This document shows positions 5,020-61,899 of a DNA stretch of 64,000 bases, piece after piece. The notes below the pieces were generated by a model. That model was given only the letters and a program-made list of their open reading frames with translations. It was not told where the DNA came from and searched no databases. Source of the stretch: an uncultured Gammaproteobacteria bacterium (GTDB taxonomy: Bacteria; Cyanobacteriota; Vampirovibrionia; LMEP-6097); the NCBI GenBank assembly GCA_964517685.1, contig CAZFCF010000003.1:47706-111705 (forward strand), read 5' to 3'. Every line of letters starts with the position of its first letter. Positions within the stretch are counted from its first letter, which is position 1. Made by a program: the position numbers and the translations under genes.

Positions 5020-6603
5020 ATGTATACTAATAATGTGATTCCCAGGCTGCTTATACTTTTTGTTTTGTCCTTTTTGCTAAATACCACAGCATTTGCTGCG
5101 GTGCCAGAGGCTATAAAAACAGAACTTACAAAGATTTATCCTGAAGCTAAATTCAGATTTGATGATTTAATGCAAGTTAAAGATCGTTTGTGGCTAGTAT
5201 TTATACCTAAAGCTAAAGTTCAATATCCAGAGCCGCCTATTAACCTAGTTCTCAAAACAGAGAATGAAGATTTTCTGTTTAGTAATGGCTGGATTTATAC
5301 GCCTATAAAAGATCATACAATTAAAAGTTTAGATTTTTATCCAGAGGTTATACAAAAACAATTTATATTAGATCAAGTTTCTCAAACTTTTCTTATCCCA
5401 AAGAAATTTACTTTGCCACGTGATTTAGCAATGACAATTGGTAGATTGCCTTTAGAGTTATCTAATGTTGAGTTAGCTACAGATAGAGAACTTTTGTTTA
5501 AACAAAGACTTGAAGCTGATAAACAAAAGGTCATGAATTTTGCAGTTTTCTCTAATAAAACTCATAGTCTTGATTTATTAGAATTTAATGACCAAGCCTT
5601 CCTTAAGCATGGAACTCAATCAGCAAATGGTTCTAGCATAGATGAAATAAAAACCAAATATCTTATAAAAGAAAAATTTACTTTTATTTCAAAAATAAAA
5701 AAATATAAGAATGATATCTATTTCTCAGATTTTCATAAAAGTAAAATCTATAAACTAATACAACCTAAACAAATAATGCCGGATGCAACTAAGCCTTTTG
5801 AGAAGTTTGAGGATAAGAAGGAATATGGTTTAGAAGAGTATTTAGATCTCAAAAATTTTGAGATTAAGGCATCTTTAGTGGATTTTGCTTTTAGTAATGA
5901 TGATTCTGTATTTTATGTACTCACAGGATCTCCAAGTCAATTATTGGTTTTTAGCACTAGAACCAAAAAATTAATGAAGGATATGAAAATCCCGGCAGCC
6001 AGTGATGAGCTTACAGTCTTGTCGCGTAATGCTTCTGAACCTGATAAAGTTTTTTTTAGATCGAGATCTGCAAATAAAGTTTTTGTATTAAACTCTTTTG
6101 ACTACAGCATTTCAAGTGAAATTGATTTGAATAAACTTGATAGTAAGTTTCTTTTTATCCCACACTCTTTTGCGATTTATCCAGATCAAATACTTTTAGG
6201 ATGTGAGGCAATTAGTAAGAGCTACAAAGATGGTTTAAAAAGTGGCGGTAAAATTTTGGTCCTTGATGTAATCACTGGTGGCTTAAATAAAATTATCGAT
6301 TTGGATTTTACTCCTTATAAGTTACTCAAGAACGATGATAAAACCGCTTATATAGTTGGTTATAGTCCTGATACTTATTATTCTAAATTAGCAAAATTAG
6401 ATACTCAAAGTTATGAATTAAAGGTGAATGATTTAGGAGCAGATTTCCCTGCGGTTAAATCTTTGGTTATTAGCAATACTGGAGATTTTATTTTGGTACC
6501 AAGCTCTCAAACCCAATTACTGGGAATAATTGATACTGCTAGTTTTTCTTTAGTCAAGAAATTAAGCATTGAAAAGCCAATCAACCTGATTATTGATTTG
6601 TAA
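5014..6603 (+). CDS. secreted hypothetical protein (signal peptide MTMYTNNVIPRLLILFVLSFLLNTTAFAA)
   Basis: Long ORF. The track start at 4747 reads through panE's 3' end and the MITE. The first plausible starts are the two ATGs at 5014/5020, the first lying inside the MITE terminal repeat. A hydrophobic signal peptide follows. No recognisable domains. Confidence 0.5.
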   Translation: MTMYTNNVIPRLLILFVLSFLLNTTAFAAVPEAIKTELTKIYPEAKFRFDDLMQVKDRLWLVFIPKAKVQYPEPPINLVLKTENEDFLFSNGWIYTPIKDHTIKSLDFYPEVIQKQFILDQVSQTFLIPKKFTLPRDLAMTIGRLPLELSNVELATDRELLFKQRLEADKQKVMNFAVFSNKTHSLDLLEFNDQAFLKHGTQSANGSSIDEIKTKYLIKEKFTFISKIKKYKNDIYFSDFHKSKIYKLIQPKQIMPDATKPFEKFEDKKEYGLEEYLDLKNFEIKASLVDFAFSNDDSVFYVLTGSPSQLLVFSTRTKKLMKDMKIPAASDELTVLSRNASEPDKVFFRSRSANKVFVLNSFDYSISSEIDLNKLDSKFLFIPHSFAIYPDQILLGCEAISKSYKDGLKSGGKILVLDVITGGLNKIIDLDFTPYKLLKNDDKTAYIVGYSPDTYYSKLAKLDTQSYELKVNDLGADFPAVKSLVISNTGDFILVPSSQTQLLGIIDTASFSLVKKLSIEKPINLIIDL

Positions 6604-6606
6604 GCT

Positions 6607-7761
6607 ATGTCGGCAAAAAGCATTTATATTCATTTACCTTTTTGTAAGACTAAATGTCCTTATTGTGATTTTGCATCTTTTGCTGATCATAATAAAGATA
6701 GACAAGAAGAGTACATAGAAGCCTTGGTGACTGAAATCAATTTTAGAATGGCTGGCTATAAACCAGAATCTAATAACATCCAAACAATTTTTTTTGGTGG
6801 TGGCACTCCAAGTGTGCATTCTGCTGAGCAACTACAGCGTATTTTAAATACTCTAAAAAAATATTTTAGCTTTGCTCATGATATAGAAGTTACTCTGGAA
6901 GCTAATCCTGGCACTATTGATAAATCCAAGCTTGCAGAATTTAAATCTATTGGAATTAATCGTATTAGTATTGGTGCTCAAACTTTTGATCCTGATCTGC
7001 TAATTAAGCTTGGACGAGGACATAGTATTGATGATACTTTGCAAGTTATCGCTAATATTCAAGCAGTGAATTTTAATTCTTGGAGCTTGGATTTAATATA
7101 TGGTCTTCCCGGCCAAACTCTTGAATCATGGTCAAAGACTTTAGTTCAGGCATTAAGTTTTGATCCACCTCATATCTCTGCTTATGCTTTGAGTATTGAA
7201 GAAAAAACACCTTATGGTGAAATATATAAAAACTCATATCATCCAGATTTGCCAGTCGAAGATTCTATTGTGGAGATGTATCAATTAACTAATGATTTAT
7301 TAGGTAAGCAAGGTATCAATCGTTATGAAATTAGTAATTGGTCTAAACCTGGTCATGAAGCGAAACACAATTTGACCTATTGGTATGCTGATGAATATTA
7401 TGCCTTTGGTTTAAGCGCGCATGGTTACATTGATTCAACTAGATATAAAAATACACGTGATCTTCCGAAGTATATAGAGGCTTTTGCTGAAAAAAATCTT
7501 GAAAGCAATTTTGGATATAATTTTGCTTTAGCTGAACCAATTCTTATACCAGAATCAGAAAAGTTAGAAGAAAAAGTTTTATTGGGATTACGTTTGACTG
7601 AGGGTCTTGAAATTACAGAAGCAATTTCTAAGTTTATTAATAAAAAAAATCTTAGTAAAAATATCGATGCTGGTTTTTTATTTTTTGACAATGATCGTTT
7701 AAAATTAACTGATAGGGCTTTGATGGTAAGTAACACTATTATTTCTGATTTACTCGTGTAG
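6607..7761 (+). CDS. hemW: radical SAM heme chaperone HemW (HemN-like, oxygen-independent coproporphyrinogen oxidase family)
   Basis: SIYIHLPFCKTKCPYCDF is the CxxxCxxC radical-SAM motif. About 384 aa, with a HemN_C-like tail. Confidence 0.75.
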   Translation: MSAKSIYIHLPFCKTKCPYCDFASFADHNKDRQEEYIEALVTEINFRMAGYKPESNNIQTIFFGGGTPSVHSAEQLQRILNTLKKYFSFAHDIEVTLEANPGTIDKSKLAEFKSIGINRISIGAQTFDPDLLIKLGRGHSIDDTLQVIANIQAVNFNSWSLDLIYGLPGQTLESWSKTLVQALSFDPPHISAYALSIEEKTPYGEIYKNSYHPDLPVEDSIVEMYQLTNDLLGKQGINRYEISNWSKPGHEAKHNLTYWYADEYYAFGLSAHGYIDSTRYKNTRDLPKYIEAFAEKNLESNFGYNFALAEPILIPESEKLEEKVLLGLRLTEGLEITEAISKFINKKNLSKNIDAGFLFFDNDRLKLTDRALMVSNTIISDLLV

Positions 7762-7787: not shown

Positions 7788-7878
7788 TTGTTACGCTCGC
7801 CCCTCGGAGATCCTCATTGACAATCAGTCAACTCCGGTTCCTCGGGGACTCGCAAGCCTAGCATCTGGGAGCTTTTCG
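7788..7878 (-). repeat. GC-rich ~100-bp repeat element, copy 2 (family B, inverted relative to copy 1)
   Basis: Its reverse complement matches 825-924 apart from an internal segment where both copies keep a hairpin through compensatory changes (tttac..gtaaa versus ttgac..gtcaa). Flanked by an extra inverted repeat cttttcgaatag / ctattcgaaaag (7870-7904). Confidence 0.8.
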
Positions 7879-7940
7879 AATAGGATCTTAGTAATTAAGA
7901 ATCTATTCGAAAAGTACAGTATTATTGAGTTATACAGCGT

Positions 7941-10900
7941 TTGAGGTGCTCAATTAAAGTCCCTAAAAAATATCTTTATTTCTTCTCTACCTTAGTTTTT
8001 TTGACTATAAGTTTTTTTCTTGTATTGAAATTAGTTAACTTCTCAGAATTAATAGCCAACTATGCGGTTAATGATTTTAATAAAAAGATCTATGGCGCTA
8101 TCAGTTTCAAAGATGCAAGACTCGGTTTAAATCCAAAGAATCTTGATTTATATTTTGAAATATTTATTCTAAAAGATCAAAATTCAGTCGAGATTTTCAA
8201 AGCTAAGAATCTAAGAGTCAAATGGTCTTTAAAGAATTTATTTGATCCGAATCAAAGAATTAATGAACTCTCTGCTGATAATTTATTTATAGCAGCTAGC
8301 AAAAATAAAAATGGTAAATGGAATTTTGAAAACCTATTCAAAAAACCTGCTGTTACGAAGCTCAAGTATTCATTTAGAGAAATTAATGTCCCTCAGTTTA
8401 CTTTGCATATAAGTGATGATATCGGTGGTTCGCAATTAAAATATGAAAATGTCAAAGTGTTTTTTAAAACCATTAAGCATAAAAAGCTCTATAGCATTGA
8501 TGTTGAGACTACCAGTAATGGTGACAATTTGATATCAGTTAAGGGTAATCTAAACCTTGCAGGTGATCAAAACTTTTTATTGAATAGAAATAATCTCAAT
8601 GTACATTTAGTAGATTTCCAAGCGATTAATTTACAGTTTTTTAGTTCTATATTTGATTTTGGTGCTTATAACAAAAACTTTACTGCGGCAGCTAAATATT
8701 TAGAAGGCTCTCGCTTAACTCTTGATGCACAGGTAAATTCCAATCGTAAGTCAAAAAACAATTTTAAATTCAATTTGCAAGTAAATGAATTGAGAAGCTT
8801 TGATCACGTAACTGCCGATTTTATTGGCAATTTGACTGCGGATTTATTAACAGTCTCTAAAATGGATCTAAATGCTGGAGAGGCTTTAATTAGCTGTGTA
8901 GGTACTGTATCTAAATGGCAGGAAAAAGATCCTATACTAAATTTAAATTTTAGAATCCATAACTTAAGTCTGCAAAAATTAAAAGTAGAAATTAATAAAT
9001 TGAAAATTCCTTTAGCAGGTTTTATTTATGAAACTTTAGCTGTAGTTTTGAAAACAGATTTAGTAAATGGTAATTTTAAAATTGCTTCTCATTTAACTAA
9101 TCCAGATTATTCATTAAATTTAGATATGGCAGGTTCTAATAATCAGCTTAAAACTAATTTTCAATATCATAATGCTGTTCTAGTAATTAAAAGTCTTGAT
9201 CTTCCTTTTGAGGCATCTAAATTATCTCTCAGGGGTAGTCATGATCTTAAGAACAATAATTTTGATTTTGAAATCGTTGCCAAAGCTGCTCCATTACAGA
9301 TTTTGACTGATATAGTATCTTCTTTGCCAATTGCTGCAAAATTACAAGTATTCTTGATTAAATCAAAATTTGAATCTGGAACTACAGATTTTAATATGCA
9401 TATTAATTCAGTGATAGATCCTCAAACTAAACTTAAAAGGGTGCAAATTAACTCTTCAACTAAAATTCGTAATGTTAATTTAAATTACGAAGATTATCCA
9501 ATTGAATTTAAGAATTTAAATTCAGATATGGAAGTTAAAGACTATGATCTCAATATTAAAACTTTAACTGGTTATCTAGGTGATGACTATGTTGAATTGA
9601 GAGGTTCATTGGATTATAGAAATCTTTCAGAAGTCAATCTAGAACTGGCTTCACCAGAATTTAATGCAAGTAACTTTAATGATTTAAAGCTTTTAGAGAA
9701 TTTGAAAAAATCTTATGGTATTAATATGGTCTCTGGTGTTCTAAAAGATTTTTATTTGGCTTTTAAGAGAAAGGATAAAAATATCGACATAGTTTCACAT
9801 GCCAATATTGATATGGGGGAAGTGGTTTTCAATGATTCTTCCAAAGTATCTAAAATAAGAGGTTTATTTGCTTTAAAAGATAAAGTTTTGAAATTTACTA
9901 AATTTACTTTTAGTTTTGGTGATGATTCAATTGTTCTCCTGGATGGCCTTGTTGATGAGACTTTGAAAGCACCAAATTTAATTTTACAAGCTAAAAAATT
10001 GTCTTTAGCTAAAATATCTAAAATTTTTGGTTTTGATAAAAAACTAAAAATCAATTTTACTGATGGCACATTGAATTCTAATTTAACTCTCAAGGATAAA
10101 GATTATTTCGGTACTATTGATTTTAATTCCGTAGGTTTTAACTACCTAGATTCCAAATATGGTGTTTACCCGGTTTCTAATATGAAAGGTAAGATCAATT
10201 TCAATAAATATTTATATGCAGAAGATCTTAGTGGTAAATATGGTGCTTCTGTATTTAAAAATCTAAATATTCATATTGATAAACCAAAGTCAGCAGATAG
10301 AATCTTCAGTCTTAGCTTCAATGGAGATCTATATGCTAATGAATTGAGTAACTTTATGCCACAAGGCATTAAGAGCTTACTTACAGTCACTGGCTATCTT
10401 CCAGCTCGTATTTTAATTTCTGGTAATAGACAGAAACAGAAATATAATATTGAGGCTGATTTGGATAATGTGGATAGCTTTAGCTTCTCAAATTGGCTTG
10501 TCTACCAAAAAAATGTACCGGTGCAGCTTAAAGCTAAATTTACTGTTACGCCTCAGCAAATTATTTCTGAAGATTGCAAGATTATTTTCTCAAATGGTCC
10601 AAGCAAAATAAATAAAATGACCAGAATCAAATCTACTTTCCAGATTGAAGATTGGTCAAATTCAAGAATGACTTATTATACAGTTTTCAGTATTTCTAAC
10701 AAGATTGGTAATGCTGATCTAGCTTATGTTGCACCGCAAATCATTAGTTTGAAGCCAATGAATCTCAGTGTTGGCAGAGGTTACTTCGATTGCGATACTA
10801 GTGGTGACATAGTCTCTAGGCAAACAATTTGTGATATTCGTATTAATAGTGCTGTTGCTAAGAAGTATGGAATTGGTGACTTGAAGGCTAATAAAATCAC

Positions 10901-11747
10901 TGTTGGATTGCTTTCAATCAATAATAAGCCTTTGGATGCTGATATTAGTTCTAGTGATGGTGACTGGAATGGTATTCCTTATAAGAACTTAGATTTAGAT
11001 TTAAAAGCAAATGGTGATTTTGTTTATATCGATAATTTAACGGCAGTTGTTAAAGATGGCACACTTGCTGCTAAAACTAGTTTCAATGTTAAAACCTTGG
11101 AATCTACATTCCGAATGAAAGGTGATAAATTACCTGCTCATGAACTTGTACAAGGTATATGGCTATTGGGTGATGAGGTGCCAGCTGGAGTCGTTAGTGG
11201 TACTTTTGAAGGTAAGACAGTCGGTATTTTACCTGATCCAATGTTCTATAACCTCGAAGGTAGCGCGAATCTGTCAGTTAAAAATGGCCAGTTGAGCCAA
11301 TTGAAATCAATGCAAAGAATTTTGACGGCAGTAAATACCATGACTAATTTTGATGTCAATAATGTTTTCCAAGTTTTGATTACTTATAAAGGAGGACTTT
11401 TTAACGATTTGATCAGCGCTATGAAATATGACAAAGGAGTTATAAGTTCAGAAAAAGTTCTTCTTAAGGCAGATGCTATTGAATTAGATCTCAGTGGTTT
11501 TTTGGATTTTAATAAAGATCATCTATCCGTAAAAGGCAAAGGCATGATCCCAAGAAGAGCTAAGAGTATTTTACAAACTGTAGGTGTGGGTAAGGCTAAC
11601 CTAGGTAATATACTTTCCAAGGCTAATTTAGACTTTTTAATCCCAACTTCTAGTAATAGATTTTTTGAATTCCAAATGACTGGTCCGATTAGTGATATGG
11701 AAACGACGGCTGAGTCGGTGCGCTCTACCTTCAAGTGGACCCAGTAA
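7941..11747 (+). CDS. AsmA/TamB-like giant outer-membrane-biogenesis protein (1268 aa)
   Basis: N-terminal membrane anchor, then a very long beta-rich, Asn/Lys-rich body. Size and architecture fit TamB/AsmA-family proteins of diderms. No catalytic motifs seen. Confidence 0.4.
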   Translation: MRCSIKVPKKYLYFFSTLVFLTISFFLVLKLVNFSELIANYAVNDFNKKIYGAISFKDARLGLNPKNLDLYFEIFILKDQNSVEIFKAKNLRVKWSLKNLFDPNQRINELSADNLFIAASKNKNGKWNFENLFKKPAVTKLKYSFREINVPQFTLHISDDIGGSQLKYENVKVFFKTIKHKKLYSIDVETTSNGDNLISVKGNLNLAGDQNFLLNRNNLNVHLVDFQAINLQFFSSIFDFGAYNKNFTAAAKYLEGSRLTLDAQVNSNRKSKNNFKFNLQVNELRSFDHVTADFIGNLTADLLTVSKMDLNAGEALISCVGTVSKWQEKDPILNLNFRIHNLSLQKLKVEINKLKIPLAGFIYETLAVVLKTDLVNGNFKIASHLTNPDYSLNLDMAGSNNQLKTNFQYHNAVLVIKSLDLPFEASKLSLRGSHDLKNNNFDFEIVAKAAPLQILTDIVSSLPIAAKLQVFLIKSKFESGTTDFNMHINSVIDPQTKLKRVQINSSTKIRNVNLNYEDYPIEFKNLNSDMEVKDYDLNIKTLTGYLGDDYVELRGSLDYRNLSEVNLELASPEFNASNFNDLKLLENLKKSYGINMVSGVLKDFYLAFKRKDKNIDIVSHANIDMGEVVFNDSSKVSKIRGLFALKDKVLKFTKFTFSFGDDSIVLLDGLVDETLKAPNLILQAKKLSLAKISKIFGFDKKLKINFTDGTLNSNLTLKDKDYFGTIDFNSVGFNYLDSKYGVYPVSNMKGKINFNKYLYAEDLSGKYGASVFKNLNIHIDKPKSADRIFSLSFNGDLYANELSNFMPQGIKSLLTVTGYLPARILISGNRQKQKYNIEADLDNVDSFSFSNWLVYQKNVPVQLKAKFTVTPQQIISEDCKIIFSNGPSKINKMTRIKSTFQIEDWSNSRMTYYTVFSISNKIGNADLAYVAPQIISLKPMNLSVGRGYFDCDTSGDIVSRQTICDIRINSAVAKKYGIGDLKANKITVGLLSINNKPLDADISSSDGDWNGIPYKNLDLDLKANGDFVYIDNLTAVVKDGTLAAKTSFNVKTLESTFRMKGDKLPAHELVQGIWLLGDEVPAGVVSGTFEGKTVGILPDPMFYNLEGSANLSVKNGQLSQLKSMQRILTAVNTMTNFDVNNVFQVLITYKGGLFNDLISAMKYDKGVISSEKVLLKADAIELDLSGFLDFNKDHLSVKGKGMIPRRAKSILQTVGVGKANLGNILSKANLDFLIPTSSNRFFEFQMTGPISDMETTAESVRSTFKWTQ

Positions 11748-25938: not shown

Positions 25939-26547
25939 ATGAGTGCGATGAAAGAGTTTACCCTGAACGATCAAGATCTAATTAAAGTCATTATTGCTGA
26001 TGATGAGCCGCTTATTCGTATGGATTTGAAAGAGCTGCTTGAAGAAACTTCTACTTATAAAGTAGTTGCTGAAGCTAAAGATGGTAATGAAGCAATCGCA
26101 GCAATTAATGAGCATAAGCCAGATATAGTTTTTATGGATATTCGTATGCCAAACAAAGATGGTATACAAGCAGCAAAAGAAATTCAACAACAACTTGGTA
26201 GGCGTGTGCCTATCATTATGCTTACAGCTTATAGTCAGCCAGAGCTTTACGAGGAAGCATCTAAAGCGGGAGTCTATGCCTATCTTACTAAGCCTTTACG
26301 TAAGGCAGATATTCCACCAGCTATTGAAGTAGCGATGGCAAGAGCTATTGAAATGTATGGTCTACAAGATGAAATAGATCGTCTCAATGACAAGCTTGAA
26401 ATTAGAAAATTAGTAGAAAAAGCTAAAGGTGTTTTGATGAAGAAATTTAACATCGATGAATCTGCAGCTTATCGCCGTATCCAAAAAACCGCTATGGACC
26501 AAAGACTTGGCTTAAAAGAAGTCTCTGAGTCGATTTTGAATGGTTAA
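25939..26547 (+). CDS. response regulator with ANTAR RNA-binding antiterminator output domain (AmiR/NasT-like)
   Basis: Receiver domain (VIIADDEPLIRMDLKELL...DIVFMDIRMP...) plus a C-terminal ANTAR signature (LEIRKLVEKAKGVLMKKFNIDESAAYRRIQKTAMDQRLGLKEV). Confidence 0.75.
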   Translation: MSAMKEFTLNDQDLIKVIIADDEPLIRMDLKELLEETSTYKVVAEAKDGNEAIAAINEHKPDIVFMDIRMPNKDGIQAAKEIQQQLGRRVPIIMLTAYSQPELYEEASKAGVYAYLTKPLRKADIPPAIEVAMARAIEMYGLQDEIDRLNDKLEIRKLVEKAKGVLMKKFNIDESAAYRRIQKTAMDQRLGLKEVSESILNG

Positions 26548-45128: not shown

Positions 45129-46112
45129 TTAAATAAACTGATACTTCGTCTGATTTTTATCTCCGTGTTTTTTGACTAATTTGAGTTTGCAAGCTTCAAG
45201 AAGATCTCTGCTGGCTGTAGCGCTGGAAATAGATTTTTGAATTTCGCTGTATTCTTTGCGGCTGAACTCTTTATTGCCCAAAGCTTGTTTTGCATATTGG
45301 ATTCTGTCTTGAAAGCTAATTTCTGGAATTTTATATTCTTTAGAATATTCATCTAAAGTTTTTTTGATGATGTTTAACATGAATTCAATAAATAAACTTG
45401 AATCACCTGCTTTATCGCAATTGCCAAGCACTTTATAATATTCTTTTTGCTCGGCTTTGATGAGAGATTCGATAGGCAGATATTCAAAGATTGGATTGGA
45501 TTCTGCAAGCATCAGGCTTTGCCAAAAACGTCCAAGGCGCCCATTGCCATCACTGAAAGGATGTATAAATTCAAATTCATAATGAAAGACTGAACTTTTT
45601 ATCAAAATGTGATCATCACTATGTTTGAGATAATGAAATAAATCGCCCATGAGCTTCGGCAGCATTTTTGGTTGTGGACCAATATGAGTAACTTGTTTGC
45701 CTTTAAAGATGCCGACATTTTTAAGACGATATTTGCCAGCATCAGGGATTAAATTCTGCATCATTAATTGATGAGCTTTGAGTAAAGATTTCTCTGAACT
45801 ACTCTTTAATTGCGGCATGTACTCATATGCTTTAATAGCATTTTGAATTTCTAATATTTCTTGTTGCGGTCCAAGAATTTTTTTGCCATCAATGATTGCA
45901 GAAACTTGATCGAGATCTAGACTATTCCCTTCGATTGAGAGATTGGCTTGAATAGACCTTGCTCTATTTTTACGTCTTAGTTCAATATTAGGCTTTGCAT
46001 TATTTGGTAAAAATCCACTTAATTGCCCGAGCAGATTTTCAATCTGTCCTATCAGCTTAATCATATTGGAACTGATGGTATAAGGGGGTTTCATACTTAT
46101 AATTATACCCAA
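45129..46112 (-). CDS. Fic-family protein (AMPylation-type motif present)
   Basis: Canonical Fic motif HPFSDGNGRLGR. An upstream LSIEGNSL segment resembles the intramolecular inhibitory helix. 327 aa. Confidence 0.75.
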   Translation of the reverse strand: MGIIISMKPPYTISSNMIKLIGQIENLLGQLSGFLPNNAKPNIELRRKNRARSIQANLSIEGNSLDLDQVSAIIDGKKILGPQQEILEIQNAIKAYEYMPQLKSSSEKSLLKAHQLMMQNLIPDAGKYRLKNVGIFKGKQVTHIGPQPKMLPKLMGDLFHYLKHSDDHILIKSSVFHYEFEFIHPFSDGNGRLGRFWQSLMLAESNPIFEYLPIESLIKAEQKEYYKVLGNCDKAGDSSLFIEFMLNIIKKTLDEYSKEYKIPEISFQDRIQYAKQALGNKEFSRKEYSEIQKSISSATASRDLLEACKLKLVKKHGDKNQTKYQFI

Positions 46113-54981: not shown

Positions 54982-55080
54982 GGACCGCACCCTCGCCAAT
55001 TCGCCTAAAGTAAAGGGTTGTCCCAGCAACCCAAATATTACTTTGATTTTAGGCTAAGAGGCGGGAGTGCGACCCCAGAA

Positions 55081-55737
55081 TTACGCCACCGAATAACTAT
55101 AACTTTCCAAAATCAAGCCACTATATTTCAATGTAGAAAAACTTTCAGACCAGTCAATGCGCGAGACTGAGGCTGCTGGTATATCTATCCTGAAGAAATT
55201 CTCTACAGGAATTTCAAGTGCATTCATTATCATGGCTTTGATTACACCAGCATGAGTTACTAAAATTATTTTATTACCAGTAGTGTAATTTTTGAGAATG
55301 TCGCTTTGGGCTCTGCCTACTCGTGCCACAAAATCTTTAACACTCTCACCTTCTGGTGGCGCAAAGTTAATAGGATCGTTAGACCATTTCTCCCACATCT
55401 TAGAATTCTCTTCTCGTATTTGCCAATAGGTTTTACCTTCCCACTCGCCTTCTTTCTTCTCAACTAAACCGCTATGTTTGTAGTAAGTAGAAAGCTGTGT
55501 GTATTTGGCAATAATATCTGCGGTTTGTACTGTCCTTGCAAGTGGGCTCGCGAAGATCGATTCAACATGCATATCCGAGAACCAAGTGCCCATGATTTCT
55601 GCTTGTTCCACTCCTTCAGTAGTAAGAGCCACATCACTATGCCCGCAAATAACACCTTTCTTGGTGGCAATAGTTTCACCATGTCGGATTAAAAAAATTG
55701 ATTTGATATTTTCAGACGAATCTAAGAGGTCAACCAT
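55081..55737 (-). CDS. histidine phosphatase family protein (phosphoglycerate mutase-like, branch 1)
   Basis: IFLIRHGET catalytic RHG motif, and the downstream H at LVTHAGV. 218 aa. Confidence 0.65.
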   Translation of the reverse strand: MVDLLDSSENIKSIFLIRHGETIATKKGVICGHSDVALTTEGVEQAEIMGTWFSDMHVESIFASPLARTVQTADIIAKYTQLSTYYKHSGLVEKKEGEWEGKTYWQIREENSKMWEKWSNDPINFAPPEGESVKDFVARVGRAQSDILKNYTTGNKIILVTHAGVIKAMIMNALEIPVENFFRIDIPAASVSRIDWSESFSTLKYSGLILESYSYSVA

Positions 55738-56983: not shown

Positions 56984-58018
56984 ATGGGTAAAAGTCAAAG
57001 CTCTATAAGAAGTTGGACCAAGCGAATGAAAGTCGCTGCAATGCTCGTGCTTATGGATCAAGAAGCAGCTGCAGGTGTGCTTAGAAGTTTTGATGATGAT
57101 CACGAAGTAATTGCTCTTGCAAAAGAGATTTCAATGGTTAGTACTGTTAGTGAAGCTGATCAAGAAATTTTATTAAATGAGATGTATGATGCACTACAAA
57201 TACAAAAAGGTGTTGCTAGTGGAAGTTTAGATTTAGCTGAGAACATGTTGGTGCAAGCTTATGGTCATGAGGGTGCTAATGACATTATCGACAAGATGAC
57301 GAACACTATTCAAAGGGTACCTTTTGAGTTCTTGCGTATCGTAGATCCTGAGCAGATAGCAAACACTATCCAACATGAACATCCACAAGTTATAACATTG
57401 CTTTTATCACATTTGAAAATTGAAAAAGCTGCAAGTGTTTTGCAAAATCTTCCTGAAGGTGTTAGATCAGACATTGCTATAAGGCTTGCAAAAATGGATA
57501 GAACGAATCCAGAAATTCTTTCTGTGGTTGAAAGAATTTTGGAAAGAAGATTTGCTGGGATTATGTCTCAGAACGAAATTCAGAATACTGTTGGTGGTAT
57601 CGAATCACTTGCAGAAATCCTCAACCGTGTTGATAGAAATACTGAGAAGAGAATTCTTGAAGATCTGGAAACTATTGACCAAGCGCTTGCTACAGATATT
57701 CGTAACTTGATGTTCGTATTTGAAGACATTATTAGATTGGATGATAAATCTATTCAGAGATTGCTTCGTGATGTTGATTCTAGAGATCTTGGACTTGCTC
57801 TGAAAGGTGCTCCTGAAGATATTCGTGTGGCATTCTTTAGAAATATGTCTGAGAAAGCATCTAAGCTTATGCAAGATGATATCGAGATGATGGGTCCAGT
57901 ATTGATGAAGGATGTATCAGAAGTACAAACCAAAATTGTTGGTATTGTTAGATCACTTGAACAAGCTGGTGAGATCATTATTCTTGGTAATAGTGATGAA
58001 GACATGTTCATTGAATAA
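56984..58018 (+). CDS. fliG: flagellar motor switch protein FliG
   Basis: The C-terminal torque helix region (IRNLMFVFEDIIRLDDKSIQRLLRDVDSRDLGLALKGA...) is the FliG signature. 344 aa. Confidence 0.8.
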   Translation: MGKSQSSIRSWTKRMKVAAMLVLMDQEAAAGVLRSFDDDHEVIALAKEISMVSTVSEADQEILLNEMYDALQIQKGVASGSLDLAENMLVQAYGHEGANDIIDKMTNTIQRVPFEFLRIVDPEQIANTIQHEHPQVITLLLSHLKIEKAASVLQNLPEGVRSDIAIRLAKMDRTNPEILSVVERILERRFAGIMSQNEIQNTVGGIESLAEILNRVDRNTEKRILEDLETIDQALATDIRNLMFVFEDIIRLDDKSIQRLLRDVDSRDLGLALKGAPEDIRVAFFRNMSEKASKLMQDDIEMMGPVLMKDVSEVQTKIVGIVRSLEQAGEIIILGNSDEDMFIE

Positions 58019-58149
58019 GAAACCATTCGCAAATTCGTCATACCTGTCTCAATTTTCAAATTATTGTTAATTTCAGAGGATTTAGGCTGTTTCAGGCTAT
58101 TATAAAAAAGCCTTTGGCTTTGAACGCTTTTTGAGGACTTACTAAACAT

Positions 58150-58235
58150 GGGTAGGTGTCCGAGTGGCTAAAGGAGGCAGACTGTAAATCTGCTCACGTA
58201 AGTGTTCGCTGGTTCGAACCCAGCCCTACCCACCA
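58150..58235 (+). tRNA. tRNA-Tyr (anticodon GTA), long variable arm
   Basis: gggtaggtgtccgagtggctaaaggaggcagactgtaaatctgc...ggttcgaacccagccctacccacca. Acceptor stem GGGTAGG/CCTACCC, anticodon loop ctGTAaa, T-loop GGTTCGAAC, encoded CCA. Collinear with E. coli tRNA-Tyr. Confidence 0.85.
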
Positions 58236-58354
58236 TTTTTAAGTTTGCGCATAATTAAGTTCGAACTCAGCGAATCGCTGGTTGATCCTTAGTAATGCGA
58301 CCTTCGGTCGCGAGCCCTACCCACCATTTTTAAGTTTGCGCATAATTAAGTTCG
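58223..58354 (+). repeat. 41-bp direct repeat duplicating the tRNA-Tyr 3' end (att-like)
   Basis: gccctacccaccatttttaagtttgcgcataattaagttcg occurs at 58223-58263 and again at 58314-58354. The copies are separated by about 50 bp that contain a small hairpin (gcgaccttcggtcgc). Confidence 0.8.
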
Positions 58355-58440
58355 GGTTCGAACTATCCTCTTTTAACTAAAACTTAAATTATAAATGCTA
58401 ATCCTGGAATAGACCTTTATTCAAATCACAGGAGATTATT

Positions 58441-58809
58441 ATGGTACAACCAGTTACATCTTTTACGCGTACTAGAGATTACTTTCAACAAAATATGGGA
58501 GCAATCATTGGCGGCTCTACGGGAGCAGCGGCAGGATTCCTATCTACTGGTAGTCTTGATAAAGCAGTCCTTGGTGGAAAAATGGGAGCTAGCTTTGGTG
58601 CGCATGCACAAAATGTGGTGGAAGAAACTTTGAATGAAGAATTCATTCCTAAAAAAGGAGCAGTGCCAGCTTCCTTAGATTCAAACAAGTTTCCCGGTAT
58701 TCAACAACAGAACCCATCATCTAAACAGGAAATAGAAGCTAAGGCGGATAAACCAGATCCCATGCAAAATTGGCAAGACAAAGGTGGTTGTCCTTGCTGT
58801 AATACTTAA
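58441..58809 (+). CDS. small glycine-zipper protein with Cys-rich tail (122 aa)
   Basis: GAIIGGSTGAAAGFLSTGSLDKAVLGGKMGASFGAHA is a GxxxG/glycine-zipper segment. The C-terminus is GGCPCCNT. No signal peptide. Confidence 0.4.
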   Translation: MVQPVTSFTRTRDYFQQNMGAIIGGSTGAAAGFLSTGSLDKAVLGGKMGASFGAHAQNVVEETLNEEFIPKKGAVPASLDSNKFPGIQQQNPSSKQEIEAKADKPDPMQNWQDKGGCPCCNT

Positions 58810-58897
58810 GTAAGGTTTTGATTCGGCTCATAAAGATGATAAATGCGGCTCATTTTGACTAGAAGATGAGCCGTATTTGCTCTTTGGGTGAGCCGAA

Positions 58898-59980
58898 TTG
58901 CATGATAAGATAATCGACTCAATGTTTGTTCAATCTGCACATACCATCAAAGACTCTCCTCGTGACCTTTCTAGCTTTAAAGAGAAATTGTTTCCAGGCA
59001 ATATAACAGCCTATAAAGTGGATTGGAAAGCTAACGGAAGTCCACAAGAGTTCCCGATCAAATCTGCGCAAGAGCTTGGAATTTCTGAAAAAGCTTTTAC
59101 GGCTATTAAAATTTTATTTCCCTATTTGGATAAAGTTTTTAGAGCAACTGGCGCTCAATTTATACCGCAGCAACATTCTACTGTTGCTAATCATTTAGCA
59201 GGTCTACAAAATTTATGTGATGAAATTTTTATTGTAGAACCTAGATTAAAATTTACAGAATCACAACAAGTTCGATTCGATGACCTTGCTAAGCAAACTA
59301 GGCTGGTATTAATGTTGCATGATATTTCTGAAATTCCTGGAGAAATATCTACTTTCTGCCAAAGATTACCCAAAGAAAAACTCACAGAGACTACTATTAC
59401 AGAAACTGATCGTCAAGAACTCGAGCAGCGAGTTGCAAAGAAATTAATTTGGCATTCTTTAAAAGCTGCATATGCAAACAGAAAAAGCTTGCCTAGAAAA
59501 TTACATCAAGCAATAACTAAGTGTCAAGATCAAGTCAGTAAGCAAGTTTCATTACCTGAAGAGCGATATAAATTAGTTGATGAGTTTTATAAATCTCTTC
59601 CTGAAATTGATGATAATTATGGAAGCAAAAAGTTTAAACAAGACTACGAAAAACTGTGGCAGGCTTACTTACCAGAGAAGAAAGGTAAAAATGCAATTCA
59701 TAATATGGCAATTGCAGCTTTGGCTAAATTAATTGATAAACTTGAATCAAAATTTCATTGTGCAATTGTTGGAGATTATTCCAAATTTGATTTTGAACCA
59801 AAATATATTATTGAAAAAGAATTTGCTCAGTTCAAAGAATTTCGTGAAAAATATTCTCACCTTTTACTATCTCCAATTTTGAAAAATTTAGCTAATTTAT
59901 TTAAAACTAGTGTAACAATTTACAGAGAGTGGCCTCAATTGGGTAGAGCGCTTGAAGAATTTAGGCTATGGGAGCATTAG
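58898..59980 (+). CDS. HD-domain protein (YfbR-like metal-dependent phosphohydrolase N-terminal half plus C-terminal extension)
   Basis: H...H (QQHSTVANHLAG) followed by LVLMLHDISEIPGEIS. This matches the HD motif arrangement of 5'-deoxynucleotidase YfbR (..YHDASEVLTGD..). 360 aa. Confidence 0.5.
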   Translation: MHDKIIDSMFVQSAHTIKDSPRDLSSFKEKLFPGNITAYKVDWKANGSPQEFPIKSAQELGISEKAFTAIKILFPYLDKVFRATGAQFIPQQHSTVANHLAGLQNLCDEIFIVEPRLKFTESQQVRFDDLAKQTRLVLMLHDISEIPGEISTFCQRLPKEKLTETTITETDRQELEQRVAKKLIWHSLKAAYANRKSLPRKLHQAITKCQDQVSKQVSLPEERYKLVDEFYKSLPEIDDNYGSKKFKQDYEKLWQAYLPEKKGKNAIHNMAIAALAKLIDKLESKFHCAIVGDYSKFDFEPKYIIEKEFAQFKEFREKYSHLLLSPILKNLANLFKTSVTIYREWPQLGRALEEFRLWEH

Positions 59981-60008
59981 TAAGCCCTTTTAGTCTAGAA
60001 TTGATACT

Positions 60009-60584
60009 ATGAAAAAAAGTTTTTTACTTAGTTCTTTAGTAATGTTACTTACTACTGTTCTGCCGGCAAGGTCTACTGAATATATTTATGCTGGTTCGCT
60101 CGCTTTAATTGGTGATTATGCTTACACAGTTGAAGCCAATACTGATAAAGCATATTTGGTTAAATATAGTTTCCCTCTTTTTGAAGAAGTCAAAAGAGTA
60201 GATTTAGAAGATGGATTTCCAACTGTTATCGGTTCAGAAAAAGGTTTTGCTGTAAATCACTACACAGAGTATGAATGGACCTCAGTCTCTGAAGAAGACA
60301 AGAGTGCTTTGAAAAAATTCAAAGCACATACAGGCGGATTTAGTCTTGCTACCGGGGATATTTTAACGGAAACAACTGTTTATACTAGCTACAATTCTGA
60401 TTTAGAGAAGGTTTCAGAAAAAACTATTTCTAATGTCTATATCTTCACTTACTCTTACGAAGATGATCCGACTACTCTTGCGGACGATGCGTTAGCTAGT
60501 GCGGTTGAAGACAAATTCTGCGGCAAGAAAAAATCTAAAAAAGGCAAGTGTAAGAAAGTTCTTTTAAGAACCTCGGCTCATTAG
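60009..60584 (+). CDS. secreted hypothetical protein (191 aa, signal peptide)
   Basis: MKKSFLLSSLVMLLTTVLPARS signal peptide. Lys-rich C-terminus. No domains recognised. Confidence 0.4.
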   Translation: MKKSFLLSSLVMLLTTVLPARSTEYIYAGSLALIGDYAYTVEANTDKAYLVKYSFPLFEEVKRVDLEDGFPTVIGSEKGFAVNHYTEYEWTSVSEEDKSALKKFKAHTGGFSLATGDILTETTVYTSYNSDLEKVSEKTISNVYIFTYSYEDDPTTLADDALASAVEDKFCGKKKSKKGKCKKVLLRTSAH

Positions 60585-60633
60585 CCTTTGCAAAAATGAG
60601 CCGTATTTTGGTTAATTATGAGCCGTAAATAAA

Positions 60634-61899
60634 TTACGCAGAAACTTTCAAGCTAGCTAATTTAGCTTTAAGTTCATTTACCTTATCGAGCTCTTCCCAA
60701 GGGAGTTTGAGATCAGGTCTGCCGAAGTGTCCATAAGCTGCAACCTCTTGGTAAAATCTGCCGCCTCTTAGTTTTGGCATTTCTCTTAGTTTGAAATTTT
60801 TAATAATAGAATATGGTCTGAAATCAAAAACTTCTTTAACTAATTCAGTAATTACTGCATCGTCCATATCACTAGTACCAAAAGCCTCTACATGGACGCT
60901 GGTTGGTCTAGCGACACCAATTGCATATGATAACTGGATTTCGCATTTGCTAGCAATGCCGGCAGCCACAATGTTCTTAGCTGCATGACGCGCTGCATAA
61001 GCCGCAGAGCGATCTACTTTAGTTGGATCTTTGCCTGAGAAGGCACCACCACCATGTCTTGCATAACCACCGTAAGTATCTACGATAATTTTACGTCCAG
61101 TTAGTCCAGCATCACCTTGAGGTCCGCCAACTACAAATCTGCCAGATGGATTGAAAAGAAATTTCGTATCAGCGTCATATTGCAAGTCATAATTTTTGAA
61201 AACTGCGTCAACAACTTTGCTTTTAAGATCTTTAGCAATGATTGCTTGGATCTTCTCATTGTCGCTTTCGCCATTAATAACCGGATCATGTTGAGTTGAG
61301 ATGAGAATAGTATCAACTCTAACTGGTTTGCCGTTTACATATTCTAAAGTTACTTGTGCTTTAGAATCAGGTCTTAGATATTTAACTCCTGGGTCATTTT
61401 TTCTTACCTCAGCAAGTGTGCGCATTAGATTGTGTGAAAGCGTTATAGCAAGCGGCATGTATTCAGGTGTTTCATCACAAGCAAAACCAAACATGATACC
61501 TTGGTCGCCAGCACCGAATTGATCTGCAGGGTCATGAGAAACATGATCTCTAATTTCTTTTGCTTGGCTTACACCAGCTGCGATATCAGGAGACTGTTGG
61601 TCAAGAGTAATCATCACTGCACAAGTATCAGCATCAAAGCCCCCTGATGAGTGTCCTGTATAGCCTATCTCGCGAATTTTATTTCTTGCGATTTCATTTA
61701 CAGGTGCGTAACATTCAGTAGTTATTTCACCACCAACTACCACAAGTCCAGTTGTACAAAAAGTTTCACATGCAACACGTGATTTTGGATCAGCAGTAAG
61801 AATTGCGTCCAGGACAGCATCAGAAATTTGATCACAGATTTTATCCGGGTGACCTTCGCTAACTGATTCTGAAGTAAATAAATAAGATTTTAAAGACAT
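60634..61899 (-). CDS. metK: S-adenosylmethionine synthetase (MetK)
   Basis: [28 protein letters not shown]-terminus, GAGDQG, and the [33 protein letters not shown]-terminal signature. 421 aa. Confidence 0.9.

Follow-up and report, generated by a model that had tools for sequence, protein, structure and literature searches.

A tRNA-linked repeat behind tRNA-Tyr of an uncultured Melainabacteria genome, next to a flexible gene interval with local octamer arrays

Introduction

Does a duplicated tRNA 3' end mark the edge of an integrated island? This question is raised by the tRNA-Tyr(GUA) gene in a 64-kb stretch of contig CAZFCF010000003.1 (64,000 nucleotides; "the window" hereafter means this whole stretch) from an uncultured Melainabacteria bacterium (Vampirovibrionia), whose nearest FliG matches are metagenome-assembled genomes (MAGs) so labelled. 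A preliminary description of this DNA took a direct repeat of the tRNA end as the classic scar of site-specific integration and the 2.3 kb that follow, with three genes and palindromic octamer sites, as a small integrated cassette, possibly a defence or toxin module. We report that the repeat is a member of the tRNA-linked repeat (TLR) class, with a unit shorter than those of Escherichia coli and in a different phylum. We consider it rather probable that this TLR and the adjoining flexible interval with its octamer arrays are two separate things that lie side by side.

Results and Discussion

A 91-nt unit ending in the tRNA 3' end follows tRNA-Tyr

The repeat is exact (42 nt, 100% identity, 58222-58263 versus 58313-58354), with 91 nt from start to start and a gap of 49 nt between the two copies. 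The duplication described earlier is real, but it comprises 14 nt of tRNA and 28 nt of trailer instead of the 41 nt (13 plus 28) first given; both the tRNA part, AGCCCTACCCACCA, and the trailer part are copied without change. The features of the array are as follows.

58150-58235, + strand: tRNA-Tyr(GUA), CCA end encoded (ARAGORN; Rfam tRNA, 56.3 bits)
58222-58263, + strand: copy 1 of the direct repeat, 14 nt of tRNA end and the 28-nt trailer (42 nt, 100%)
58264-58283, + strand: hairpin 1 of the unit, AAC.CAGCG-AAT-CGCTGGTT (RNA fold)
58297-58311, + strand: hairpin 2 of the unit, GCGACC-TTC-GGTCGC, directly 5' of the tail copy (RNA fold)
58313-58354, + strand: direct-repeat copy 2, tail plus trailer, closing unit 1 and opening the next
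58349-58374, + strand: truncated second unit, starting with AGTTCGGGTTCGAACT; a terminator-like hairpin, then a T-rich run

The array amounts to about 1.6 copies of a 91-nt unit that starts at 58236, directly after tRNA-Tyr, and consists of two hairpins followed by the last 14 nt of the tRNA and the trailer. Hairpin 1 joins two copies of the 5' half of the T-arm, one inverted and one direct, and a U-rich linker separates it from hairpin 2. The second unit opens with AGTTCGGGTTCGAACT, as does unit 1 of the closest relative (locus L120, FliG 98% identical), and then breaks off; GTTCGGGTTCGAAC, at the start of L120 unit 1, is likewise the start of the second unit in the window. A consensus terminator scan called 58349-58364 terminator-like, and a promoter scan called no promoter-like site between the tRNA and 58440. 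Tandem Repeats Finder reported nothing at the array, because fewer than two copies of the unit are present, and Rfam at permissive thresholds returned only tRNA in this region of the window and in six related loci.

Two SPAdes and four Logan contigs from six samples match the locus at 99.97-100% identity. The repeat is spanned identically by the two SPAdes contigs (L131 and L132), which come from different samples, and the four Logan contigs start at 58325, within the repeat. Because independent assemblies reproduce the locus, the repeat and the locus are real and not an assembly artefact. Short-read breaks in the repeat also occur in relatives, where L084 begins and L116 ends inside a unit, and MAG loci with such repeats are likely to be split often between contigs.

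The unit has the properties of a tRNA-linked repeat

TLRs are defined by 18-19 bp of 3' identity with an upstream tRNA or rRNA gene; in E. coli they were recognized as early as 1978, and 22 elements at ten loci are described there (PMC8144298). They sit in tRNA and rRNA operons directly downstream of the gene, in one to five tandem units per locus, and are cut out of the primary transcript that they share with the tRNA; a role of the repeat as a signal for processing by RNase E has been put forward (PMC8144298). We checked the E. coli tRNA-Tyr locus directly: behind tyrV there are three units of 178 nt, all of which close with the final 19 nt of tRNA-Tyr, and one more unit lies between tyrT and tyrV, where rttR and tpr are annotated. 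These tyrT/tyrV units, which are said to encode RtT RNA, were reportedly the subject of work by Egan and Landy (1978) and by Bosl and Kersten (1991).

The window unit agrees with TLRs in position, tail identity and tandem copies. It adjoins tRNA-Tyr on the downstream side and ends in the exact tRNA 3' end including CCA, and its tandem copy number is fractional (about 1.6 in the window, 3.14 in E. coli), with copy number and period varying among relatives. A scrambled T-arm-like sequence (GTTCGA..CAGCGA) is present in the unit, and the motif GTTCGA(A)CTC(G)AGCG is common to the unit and RtT. By contrast, the window unit is half as long (91 versus 178 nt), repeats only 14 nt of the tRNA but 28 nt of the trailer, and contains no tpr-like open reading frame (ORF). 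By analogy with E. coli, the unit would most likely be co-transcribed with the tRNA and released by the 3'-processing signal that the duplicated tail and trailer would provide. Comparison of the loci shows an array that gains and loses units through tandem duplication or unequal crossing-over between tail copies.

Several points weigh against this assignment or limit its reach. RtT (Rfam RF00391, gathering threshold 45 bits) gave no match at E<=1 in 57500-61500, whereas the E. coli units, as a control, score 133-137 bits, and no complement of AGCCCTACCC, which would form the RtT closing helix, occurs in 58236-58312, whereas that helix is present and covarying in E. coli and marine units. Most TLRs are without known function even in E. 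coli (PMC8144298). Finally, the abrupt loss of homology with L120 after the tail copy and the hypervariable content beyond it, both described below, also fit a tRNA-associated integration hot spot. The missing RF00391 match and closing helix rule out membership in the Rfam RtT family itself.

In the course of this comparison, RtT-like units of about 185 nt that end in a tRNA-Tyr tail copy were seen in eight metagenome contigs with a GC content of about 0.47-0.52 (L099, L101, L102, L103, L110, L111, L117 and L118). These units share with E. coli RtT a closing helix that covaries with the T-stem of the respective tRNA, GAUGAGAA and an invariant GTTCGAGCG, and they were missed by RF00391 at E<=1. 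RtT-like elements seem to be much more widespread than the Rfam family suggests. A hammerhead ribozyme was considered for the GAUGAGAA...CGAAA motifs of these long units and rejected, since the core does not fit.

Relatives keep the architecture and pairing of the unit

Using FliG as the anchor to fetch the loci of relatives, we found an equivalent unit behind tRNA-Tyr at no fewer than six related loci: in L120, L084 (MetK 92% identical), L007, L092/L116 and L106, and a degenerate one in L006. There are two units in L120 and at least two in L084, where they stand at the start of the contig. The architecture is constant: hairpin 1 is closed by AACC...GGTT and followed by a U-rich linker, hairpin 2 and, 1-4 nt later, the tail copy, after which the trailer runs for a few to 28 nt. 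The L120 unit has, as 5' strand of hairpin 1, an inverted copy of the T-arm that is perfect over 17 nt, and hairpin 1 retains its stem in L106 and L006 although the sequences differ. Hairpin 2 stays in place while its sequence takes at least five forms (GCGACC/GGTCGC, GTGACC/GGTCAC, GGCATGAC/GTCATGCC, CTGGAATTGC/GCAATTCCAG and a fifth in L007); its counterparts in L120 unit 2, L007, L106 and L006 have four sequences other than that of the window, and L120 unit 2 shows a compensatory change from GCGAC/GTCGC to GTGAC/GTCAC. Covariation was tabulated by folding each unit, as a MAFFT alignment of the variable hairpin 2 failed. By this comparison, the unit is inherited within this Melainabacteria clade.

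The 28-nt trailer is the same in both window copies and differs from the L120 trailers. This pattern, identity within a genome and difference from L120, points to duplication or gene conversion inside the genome, not to recombination between a foreign attP and attB.

Tail repeats of this kind are not confined to tRNA-Tyr. A copy of the last 13 nt of the tRNA (at most one mismatch, at most 450 nt downstream) follows 15 of the 53 tRNAs in the fetched loci, where by our own estimate for these settings about 3e-4 per tRNA would be expected by chance. Among Gastranaerophilales and Vampirovibrio MAGs, such repeats lie behind tRNA-Asn in L041 (1826-2130, two tandem 154-nt units) and L075 and behind tRNA-Pro in L072, where the repeat includes the terminator of the tRNA too; L043 has a tail repeat behind tRNA-Tyr. 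Between the first and the partial second unit of L120 lies a sequence of about 113 nt (L120:7459-7571) with perfect 15-bp terminal inverted repeats, ATGAAACCCAGAACT/AGTTCTGGGTTTCAT, which looks like a small miniature inverted-repeat transposable element (MITE) inserted in the array.

The tail repeat does not bound the downstream genes

The regenerated tRNA and the displaced fragment are the two ends of a tRNA-integrated island, as the Islander account puts it (PMC4383910). In the window, by contrast, the tRNA and the fragment enclose 49 nt and no genes, and the three genes lie outside; the repeat thus does not delimit the downstream 2.3 kb and is not a scar bounding that segment. What the window has in common with such islands and prophages is an intact tRNA that is followed by a copy of part of its 3' end, beside variable accessory genes, an arrangement to which the tycheposons of marine cyanobacteria are reportedly comparable.

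An integration history of the site would nevertheless be conceivable, in which one or more tyrosine-integrase elements used the tRNA-Tyr 3' end, the tail copy is a leftover attachment (att) site, and the 2.3 kb are a decayed island from which integrase and distal att are gone. It would account for an interval that is hypervariable even in comparison with the relative whose FliG is 98% identical: the L120 flank is 90% identical in nucleotide sequence up to 58326, the end of the tail copy, where homology stops. L120 also has a third, degenerate tail copy, with the small element carrying 15-bp inverted repeats between copies, and the orientation of tRNA-Tyr flips among L005, L006 and L094. We regard this history as improbable. 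Besides the position of the genes, no third tail copy that could be the distal site was found in the window or near metK with up to three mismatches allowed, and the repeat runs 28 nt into a genome-specific trailer. Pfam identified no integrase or recombinase domain in the three proteins or in the scanned ORFs from about 44.4 to 63.1 kb, which are ordinary housekeeping genes, in agreement with the preliminary description, nor an integrase domain in the scanned interval ORFs of L120, L084, L007, L092 and L006; the window locus also yielded no distal att site, phage genes or defence genes. No IMG/VR contig contains this tRNA end or the unit junction, and the segment does not stand out in base composition, with a GC content of 0.31-0.42 inside it as well as outside. 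Moreover, the 49-nt body and its covarying hairpins are conserved in species whose downstream genes differ. The claim of a classic integration scar is therefore not upheld, and we retain the TLR assignment.

The interval between tRNA-Tyr and metK is flexible

The genes and sites between the two conserved flanks are as follows; fliG and tRNA-Tyr served as anchors on the left and metK, p140 and ispB on the right.

56984-58018, + strand: fliG, conserved left flank (Pfam FliG_N/M/C, E down to 2.5e-40)
58441-58809, + strand: p122, a 122-aa ORFan
58820-58899, + strand: site A, an 80-nt nested palindrome (octamer array)
58898-59980, + strand: p360, HD-fold phosphohydrolase-like (predicted); the ATG at 58922 is the more likely start
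60009-60584, + strand: p191, secreted-type and beta-rich, with a Lys-rich C-terminal tail containing two Cys
60574-60625, + strand: site B, three octamers, the left one overlapping the last codons of p191
60634-61899, - strand: metK, conserved right flank, convergent (Pfam S-AdoMet_synt N/M/C)

The content of this interval differs in L120, L084, L092, L095, L098, L006 and L094, and relatives hold 0.3-8.5 kb of other content there. At the short end, L006 and L094 have about 0.3 kb with the tRNA inverted; at the long end, the 8.5-kb interval of L098 (also in L096 and L112) holds an NDP-sugar-transferase-like gene, TPR-like proteins and other ORFs. A TPR-sulfotransferase gene is found at the interval in L092, L095 and L006, and L007 has a 440-aa protein without assigned identity. 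In L120 the tail copy is followed by the element with 15-bp inverted repeats, the partial second unit, an AAA_14/DUF4143 ATPase, a 296-aa protein and a p191 homolog, after which the next gene is another DUF4143 gene, not metK. L084 has the order units, a 250-aa gene on the - strand, p360, p191, a 265-aa gene and metK. At the nucleotide level, the window is homologous to L084 over 58903-60571 and again from 60635 on (metK, 87% identity), and to L120, in this downstream part, over 60000-60571. The gene order of L084 and the homology with both relatives imply that p360-p191 is a conserved two-gene block. Judged by sequence comparison, the interval is a flexible spot whose gene content turns over quickly among relatives. 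The comparison of the tRNA-Tyr spot with relatives that was proposed earlier thus shows different content in every related species, and in L120; of the idea of a small integrated cassette, the flexibility of the interval stands, and no bounding scar or mobility gene was found at the locus.

Other features of the region were noted as well. In L005 (11043-11128), L006 (13694-13779) and L094 (8263-8309), tRNA-Tyr lies the other way round relative to fliG and metK, and the tRNA abuts metK in L006 and L094; given these opposite orientations, the segment with tRNA-Tyr has been inverted at least once in the clade. A second indel relative to L120, between the DsbH-like and His_Phos_1 genes, consists of about 2.9 kb extra (L120:1289-4177 versus window 54998-55082) that hold a Fic-domain gene and two ORFs; the Fic gene of the window is elsewhere (45129-46112). 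Past ispB, beyond the right end of the window (L124:380-2424), there are two tandem flagellin genes, a GerE-type regulator, a deaminase and an AhpC-like gene. Together with fliG, the flagellin genes imply that the region sits among flagellar genes, and the sugar and sulfotransferase genes at the tRNA-Tyr spot of relatives may be flagellin-modification genes.

Two octamer arrays are local to the p360-p191 block

The exact octamer CGGCTCAT/ATGAGCCG occurs seven times in the window compared to 0.72 expected, a count reached in none of 100 shuffles. Six of the seven are within 58824-60625, and the seventh is at 26003 in an apparently ordinary coding stretch. Other loci, 1.73 Mb in all, contain the octamer at background frequency (35 matches, about 1.3 per 64 kb); the sites in the window are strongly local. 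Of the seven local copies counted in the preliminary description, six are exact; the remaining one is the imperfect octamer GTGAGCCG at 58888-58895. The arrays bracket the p360-p191 block, as first proposed.

Site A, which is intergenic and the longest inverted repeat in the window, has octamers at 58824(+), 58846(+), 58866(-) and 58888 (GTGAGCCG), in the orientation → → ← ← and with 22/20/22-nt phasing, and ends in 11-nt terminal inverted repeats, ATTCGGCTCAT/GTGAGCCGAAT. Site B has octamers at 60574(+), 60596(-) and 60618(-), in the orientation → ← ← with 22/22 phasing. The inner palindromes are at 58846-58873 (N12) in site A and 60574-60603 (N14) in site B; the second agrees with the coordinates given before, and the first had been placed 10 nt too far right (58856-58883). 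Similarly, the extra half-sites at 58824 and 60618 were correct, and the one placed at 58899 is at 58888. The RNA fold of site A reaches -45.7 kcal/mol for the + (sense) strand (z = -9.4; 35 pairs, 30 Watson-Crick and 5 G-U) compared to -31.5 kcal/mol for the - strand, and all five of its non-Watson-Crick pairs are G-U on the sense strand. The site B hairpin is at -18.3 kcal/mol (z = -3.3), and its stem is followed by UAUUUUGG. The left octamer of site B was made by a clean 6-nt in-frame insertion relative to L084, AGAAC[CTCGGC]TCATTAG.

Our preferred reading, held tentatively and at somewhat less than even confidence, is that the arrays are sense-strand RNA stem-loops that would end or insulate the p122 and p360-p191 transcripts. 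Quasi-palindrome template switching would have perfected the arrays, which would explain the 6-nt insertion. Weighing against the stem-loops, sites A and B share only the octamers (and TATTT) at a fixed 22-nt phasing, while their loops and spacers differ, and shared octamers with differing loops fit sequence-specific protein recognition better than pure RNA structure. The third half-site of site B lies outside the main hairpin. Site A has no U-run after it and is followed by AAUUGCAUG, and the terminator scan called neither site because their loops are longer than 8 nt. In addition, the scan for further copies of the arrays covered about 69 kb of the genome.

The main alternative, which we hold to be unlikely, is that the arrays are phased DNA sites of a trans-acting protein, either a looping repressor or activator or a site-specific recombinase, that controls or moves p360-p191. 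The octamer and its 22-nt phasing, about two helical turns, are what is kept between the two sites, site B has a third, direct half-site, and the octamer intrudes into the p191 frame through the in-frame insertion. Moreover, the junctions at which gene content departs from that of L084 and L120 coincide exactly with sites A and B. The orthologous p360-p191 loci of those two relatives, however, are without octamer sites, and neither the three genes nor the ORFs scanned in the flanks encode a regulator or recombinase. The G-U character of all five mismatches of site A on the sense strand points to selection at the RNA level, and seven contigs from six samples that cover p360-p191 all agree in a single arrangement, none of them inverted or excised. 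A more specific form of this idea, which we consider very improbable, is that the sites are recognized by a trans-acting recombinase encoded elsewhere, with p122 plus site A and p360-p191 plus site B as two cassettes of a non-integron cassette exchange and the tail copies as anchor; if true, the enzyme would swap gene cassettes in the tRNA-Tyr-to-metK interval. Two known types of recombination site were rejected. Integron attC sites are excluded by the lack of R''/R' cores (RYYYAAC...GTTRRRY) at the ends of A and B and of IntI, and Tn7-like ends with 22-bp sites by the orthologous L084 block, which has none, and the lack of a transposase.

Repetitive extragenic palindromic (REP) sequences and their mosaic elements (BIME) and Correia elements are imperfect palindromes of tens of nucleotides that lie between genes or at their 3' ends, form stable RNA hairpins and occur at rearrangement junctions. 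Sites A and B are similar in that they are intergenic or at a gene 3' end, form hairpins and lie at junctions, and they could be copies of a small dispersed non-autonomous palindrome (MITE, REP or Correia-like), a possibility to which we give little credence. In its favor are the 80-nt hairpin of site A with its 11-nt terminal inverted repeats in an intergenic position, the 79% similarity of 33 nt of site B to the inner-left and right parts of site A, and the location of both sites at indel junctions relative to relatives. Unlike dispersed elements, however, the sites are seen in only two copies within 1.8 kb, and their likeness is an 8-nt core at 22-nt phasing, with dissimilar sequence outside the octamers. 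No further copies were found outside 58820-60631 in the window and the 4.9 kb beyond it. Relatives have no copies, no REP-associated tyrosine transposase (RAYT), other transposase or evident target-site duplication was found at either site, and the left arm of site B came from a 6-nt insertion, not from insertion of a whole element. A scan of viral contigs for the palindrome gave four matches in unrelated contexts, with no sign of enrichment. We therefore retain the RNA stem-loops as the preferred reading of the arrays.

A tiny ORF starts from each ATGAGCCG: 58866-58913 (+), MSRICSLGEPNCMIR; 60596-60628 (+), MSRILVNYEP; and 58853-58806 (-), MSRIYHLYEPNQNLT. They share MSRI...EP because of the octamer and the 22-nt phasing. 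They have no Shine-Dalgarno sequence, the peptide between the octamers is not conserved, and they are probably a by-product. Two further strong hairpins of the window, at 2742-2789 and 7872-7914, are unrelated in sequence to the octamer sites; one is a perfect 20-bp stem with an 8-nt loop and the other a 19-nt stem with 89% complementarity.

p360 is a predicted HD-fold protein of a rare family

The three genes reported before are present. p122 has a glycine-zipper-like stretch and a GGCPCCNT tail, with AGGAG 7 nt before its ATG. No relative besides p122 itself was found among 5.8 billion protein clusters, and Pfam and NCBIfam gave weak Gly-zipper-type matches below threshold; by these searches p122 is a lineage-specific ORFan.

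The model of p360 is confident (pLDDT 90.7), and a fold search found an HD-domain fold, in keeping with the first guess for this protein. This result came from the fold search alone; sequence-profile searches against PDB and Pfam gave nothing meaningful. p360 itself has no Pfam HD or HD_3 match above threshold, and one of its 13 homologs matched HD_3 at E=0.23. H93, H141, D142 and D280, candidate metal ligands in an H...HD...D pattern, are invariant in the 13 homologs, and the family has 28 representatives among 1.84 billion proteins. On the basis of the model, p360 is predicted to be a rare HD-fold nucleotide phosphohydrolase-like enzyme. It differs from HD phosphohydrolases of the YfbR/HDDC2/OxsA/DatZ type in being about twice as long and in having a helical stretch of about 140 residues between the HD motif and the distal Asp. 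Elsewhere, a cluster headed by an extracytoplasmic function (ECF) sigma factor has a p360 homolog as its final gene and is followed by tRNA-His (L086:8142-11086), and L089 has two p360 paralogs about 3 kb apart (6530-7123 and 10004-10996).

p191 begins with a signal-like segment at its N terminus. Apart from its own truncated cluster, other genomes contributed five homologs. In the alignment, a 2-aa "SA" insertion before the terminal His is unique to the window genome. The AlphaFold2 (AF2) model is of moderate quality (pLDDT 62.8), and its beta core may tentatively be said to resemble propeller blades.

PADLOC gave no matches for the three proteins, and PHROGs and NCBIfam gave only weak low-complexity or glycine-zipper-type matches for p122. 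The suggestion of a defence or toxin module accordingly finds no support, there being no match to a defence or phage family.

Conclusions

The p360 HD-fold family and the local octamer arrays are small unexplained items and not a demonstrated new system. The repeat behind tRNA-Tyr has wider implications. A duplicated tRNA 3' end does not by itself testify to an integrated island, and repeats of this type make short-read assemblies break exactly at the tRNA tail copy. The units in Melainabacteria, together with the marine RtT-like units that the Rfam model misses, suggest that the TLR class extends far beyond what is annotated and that structural constraint acts on it. Hairpins that change in sequence and keep their pairing offer comparative leverage on the old question of TLR function.

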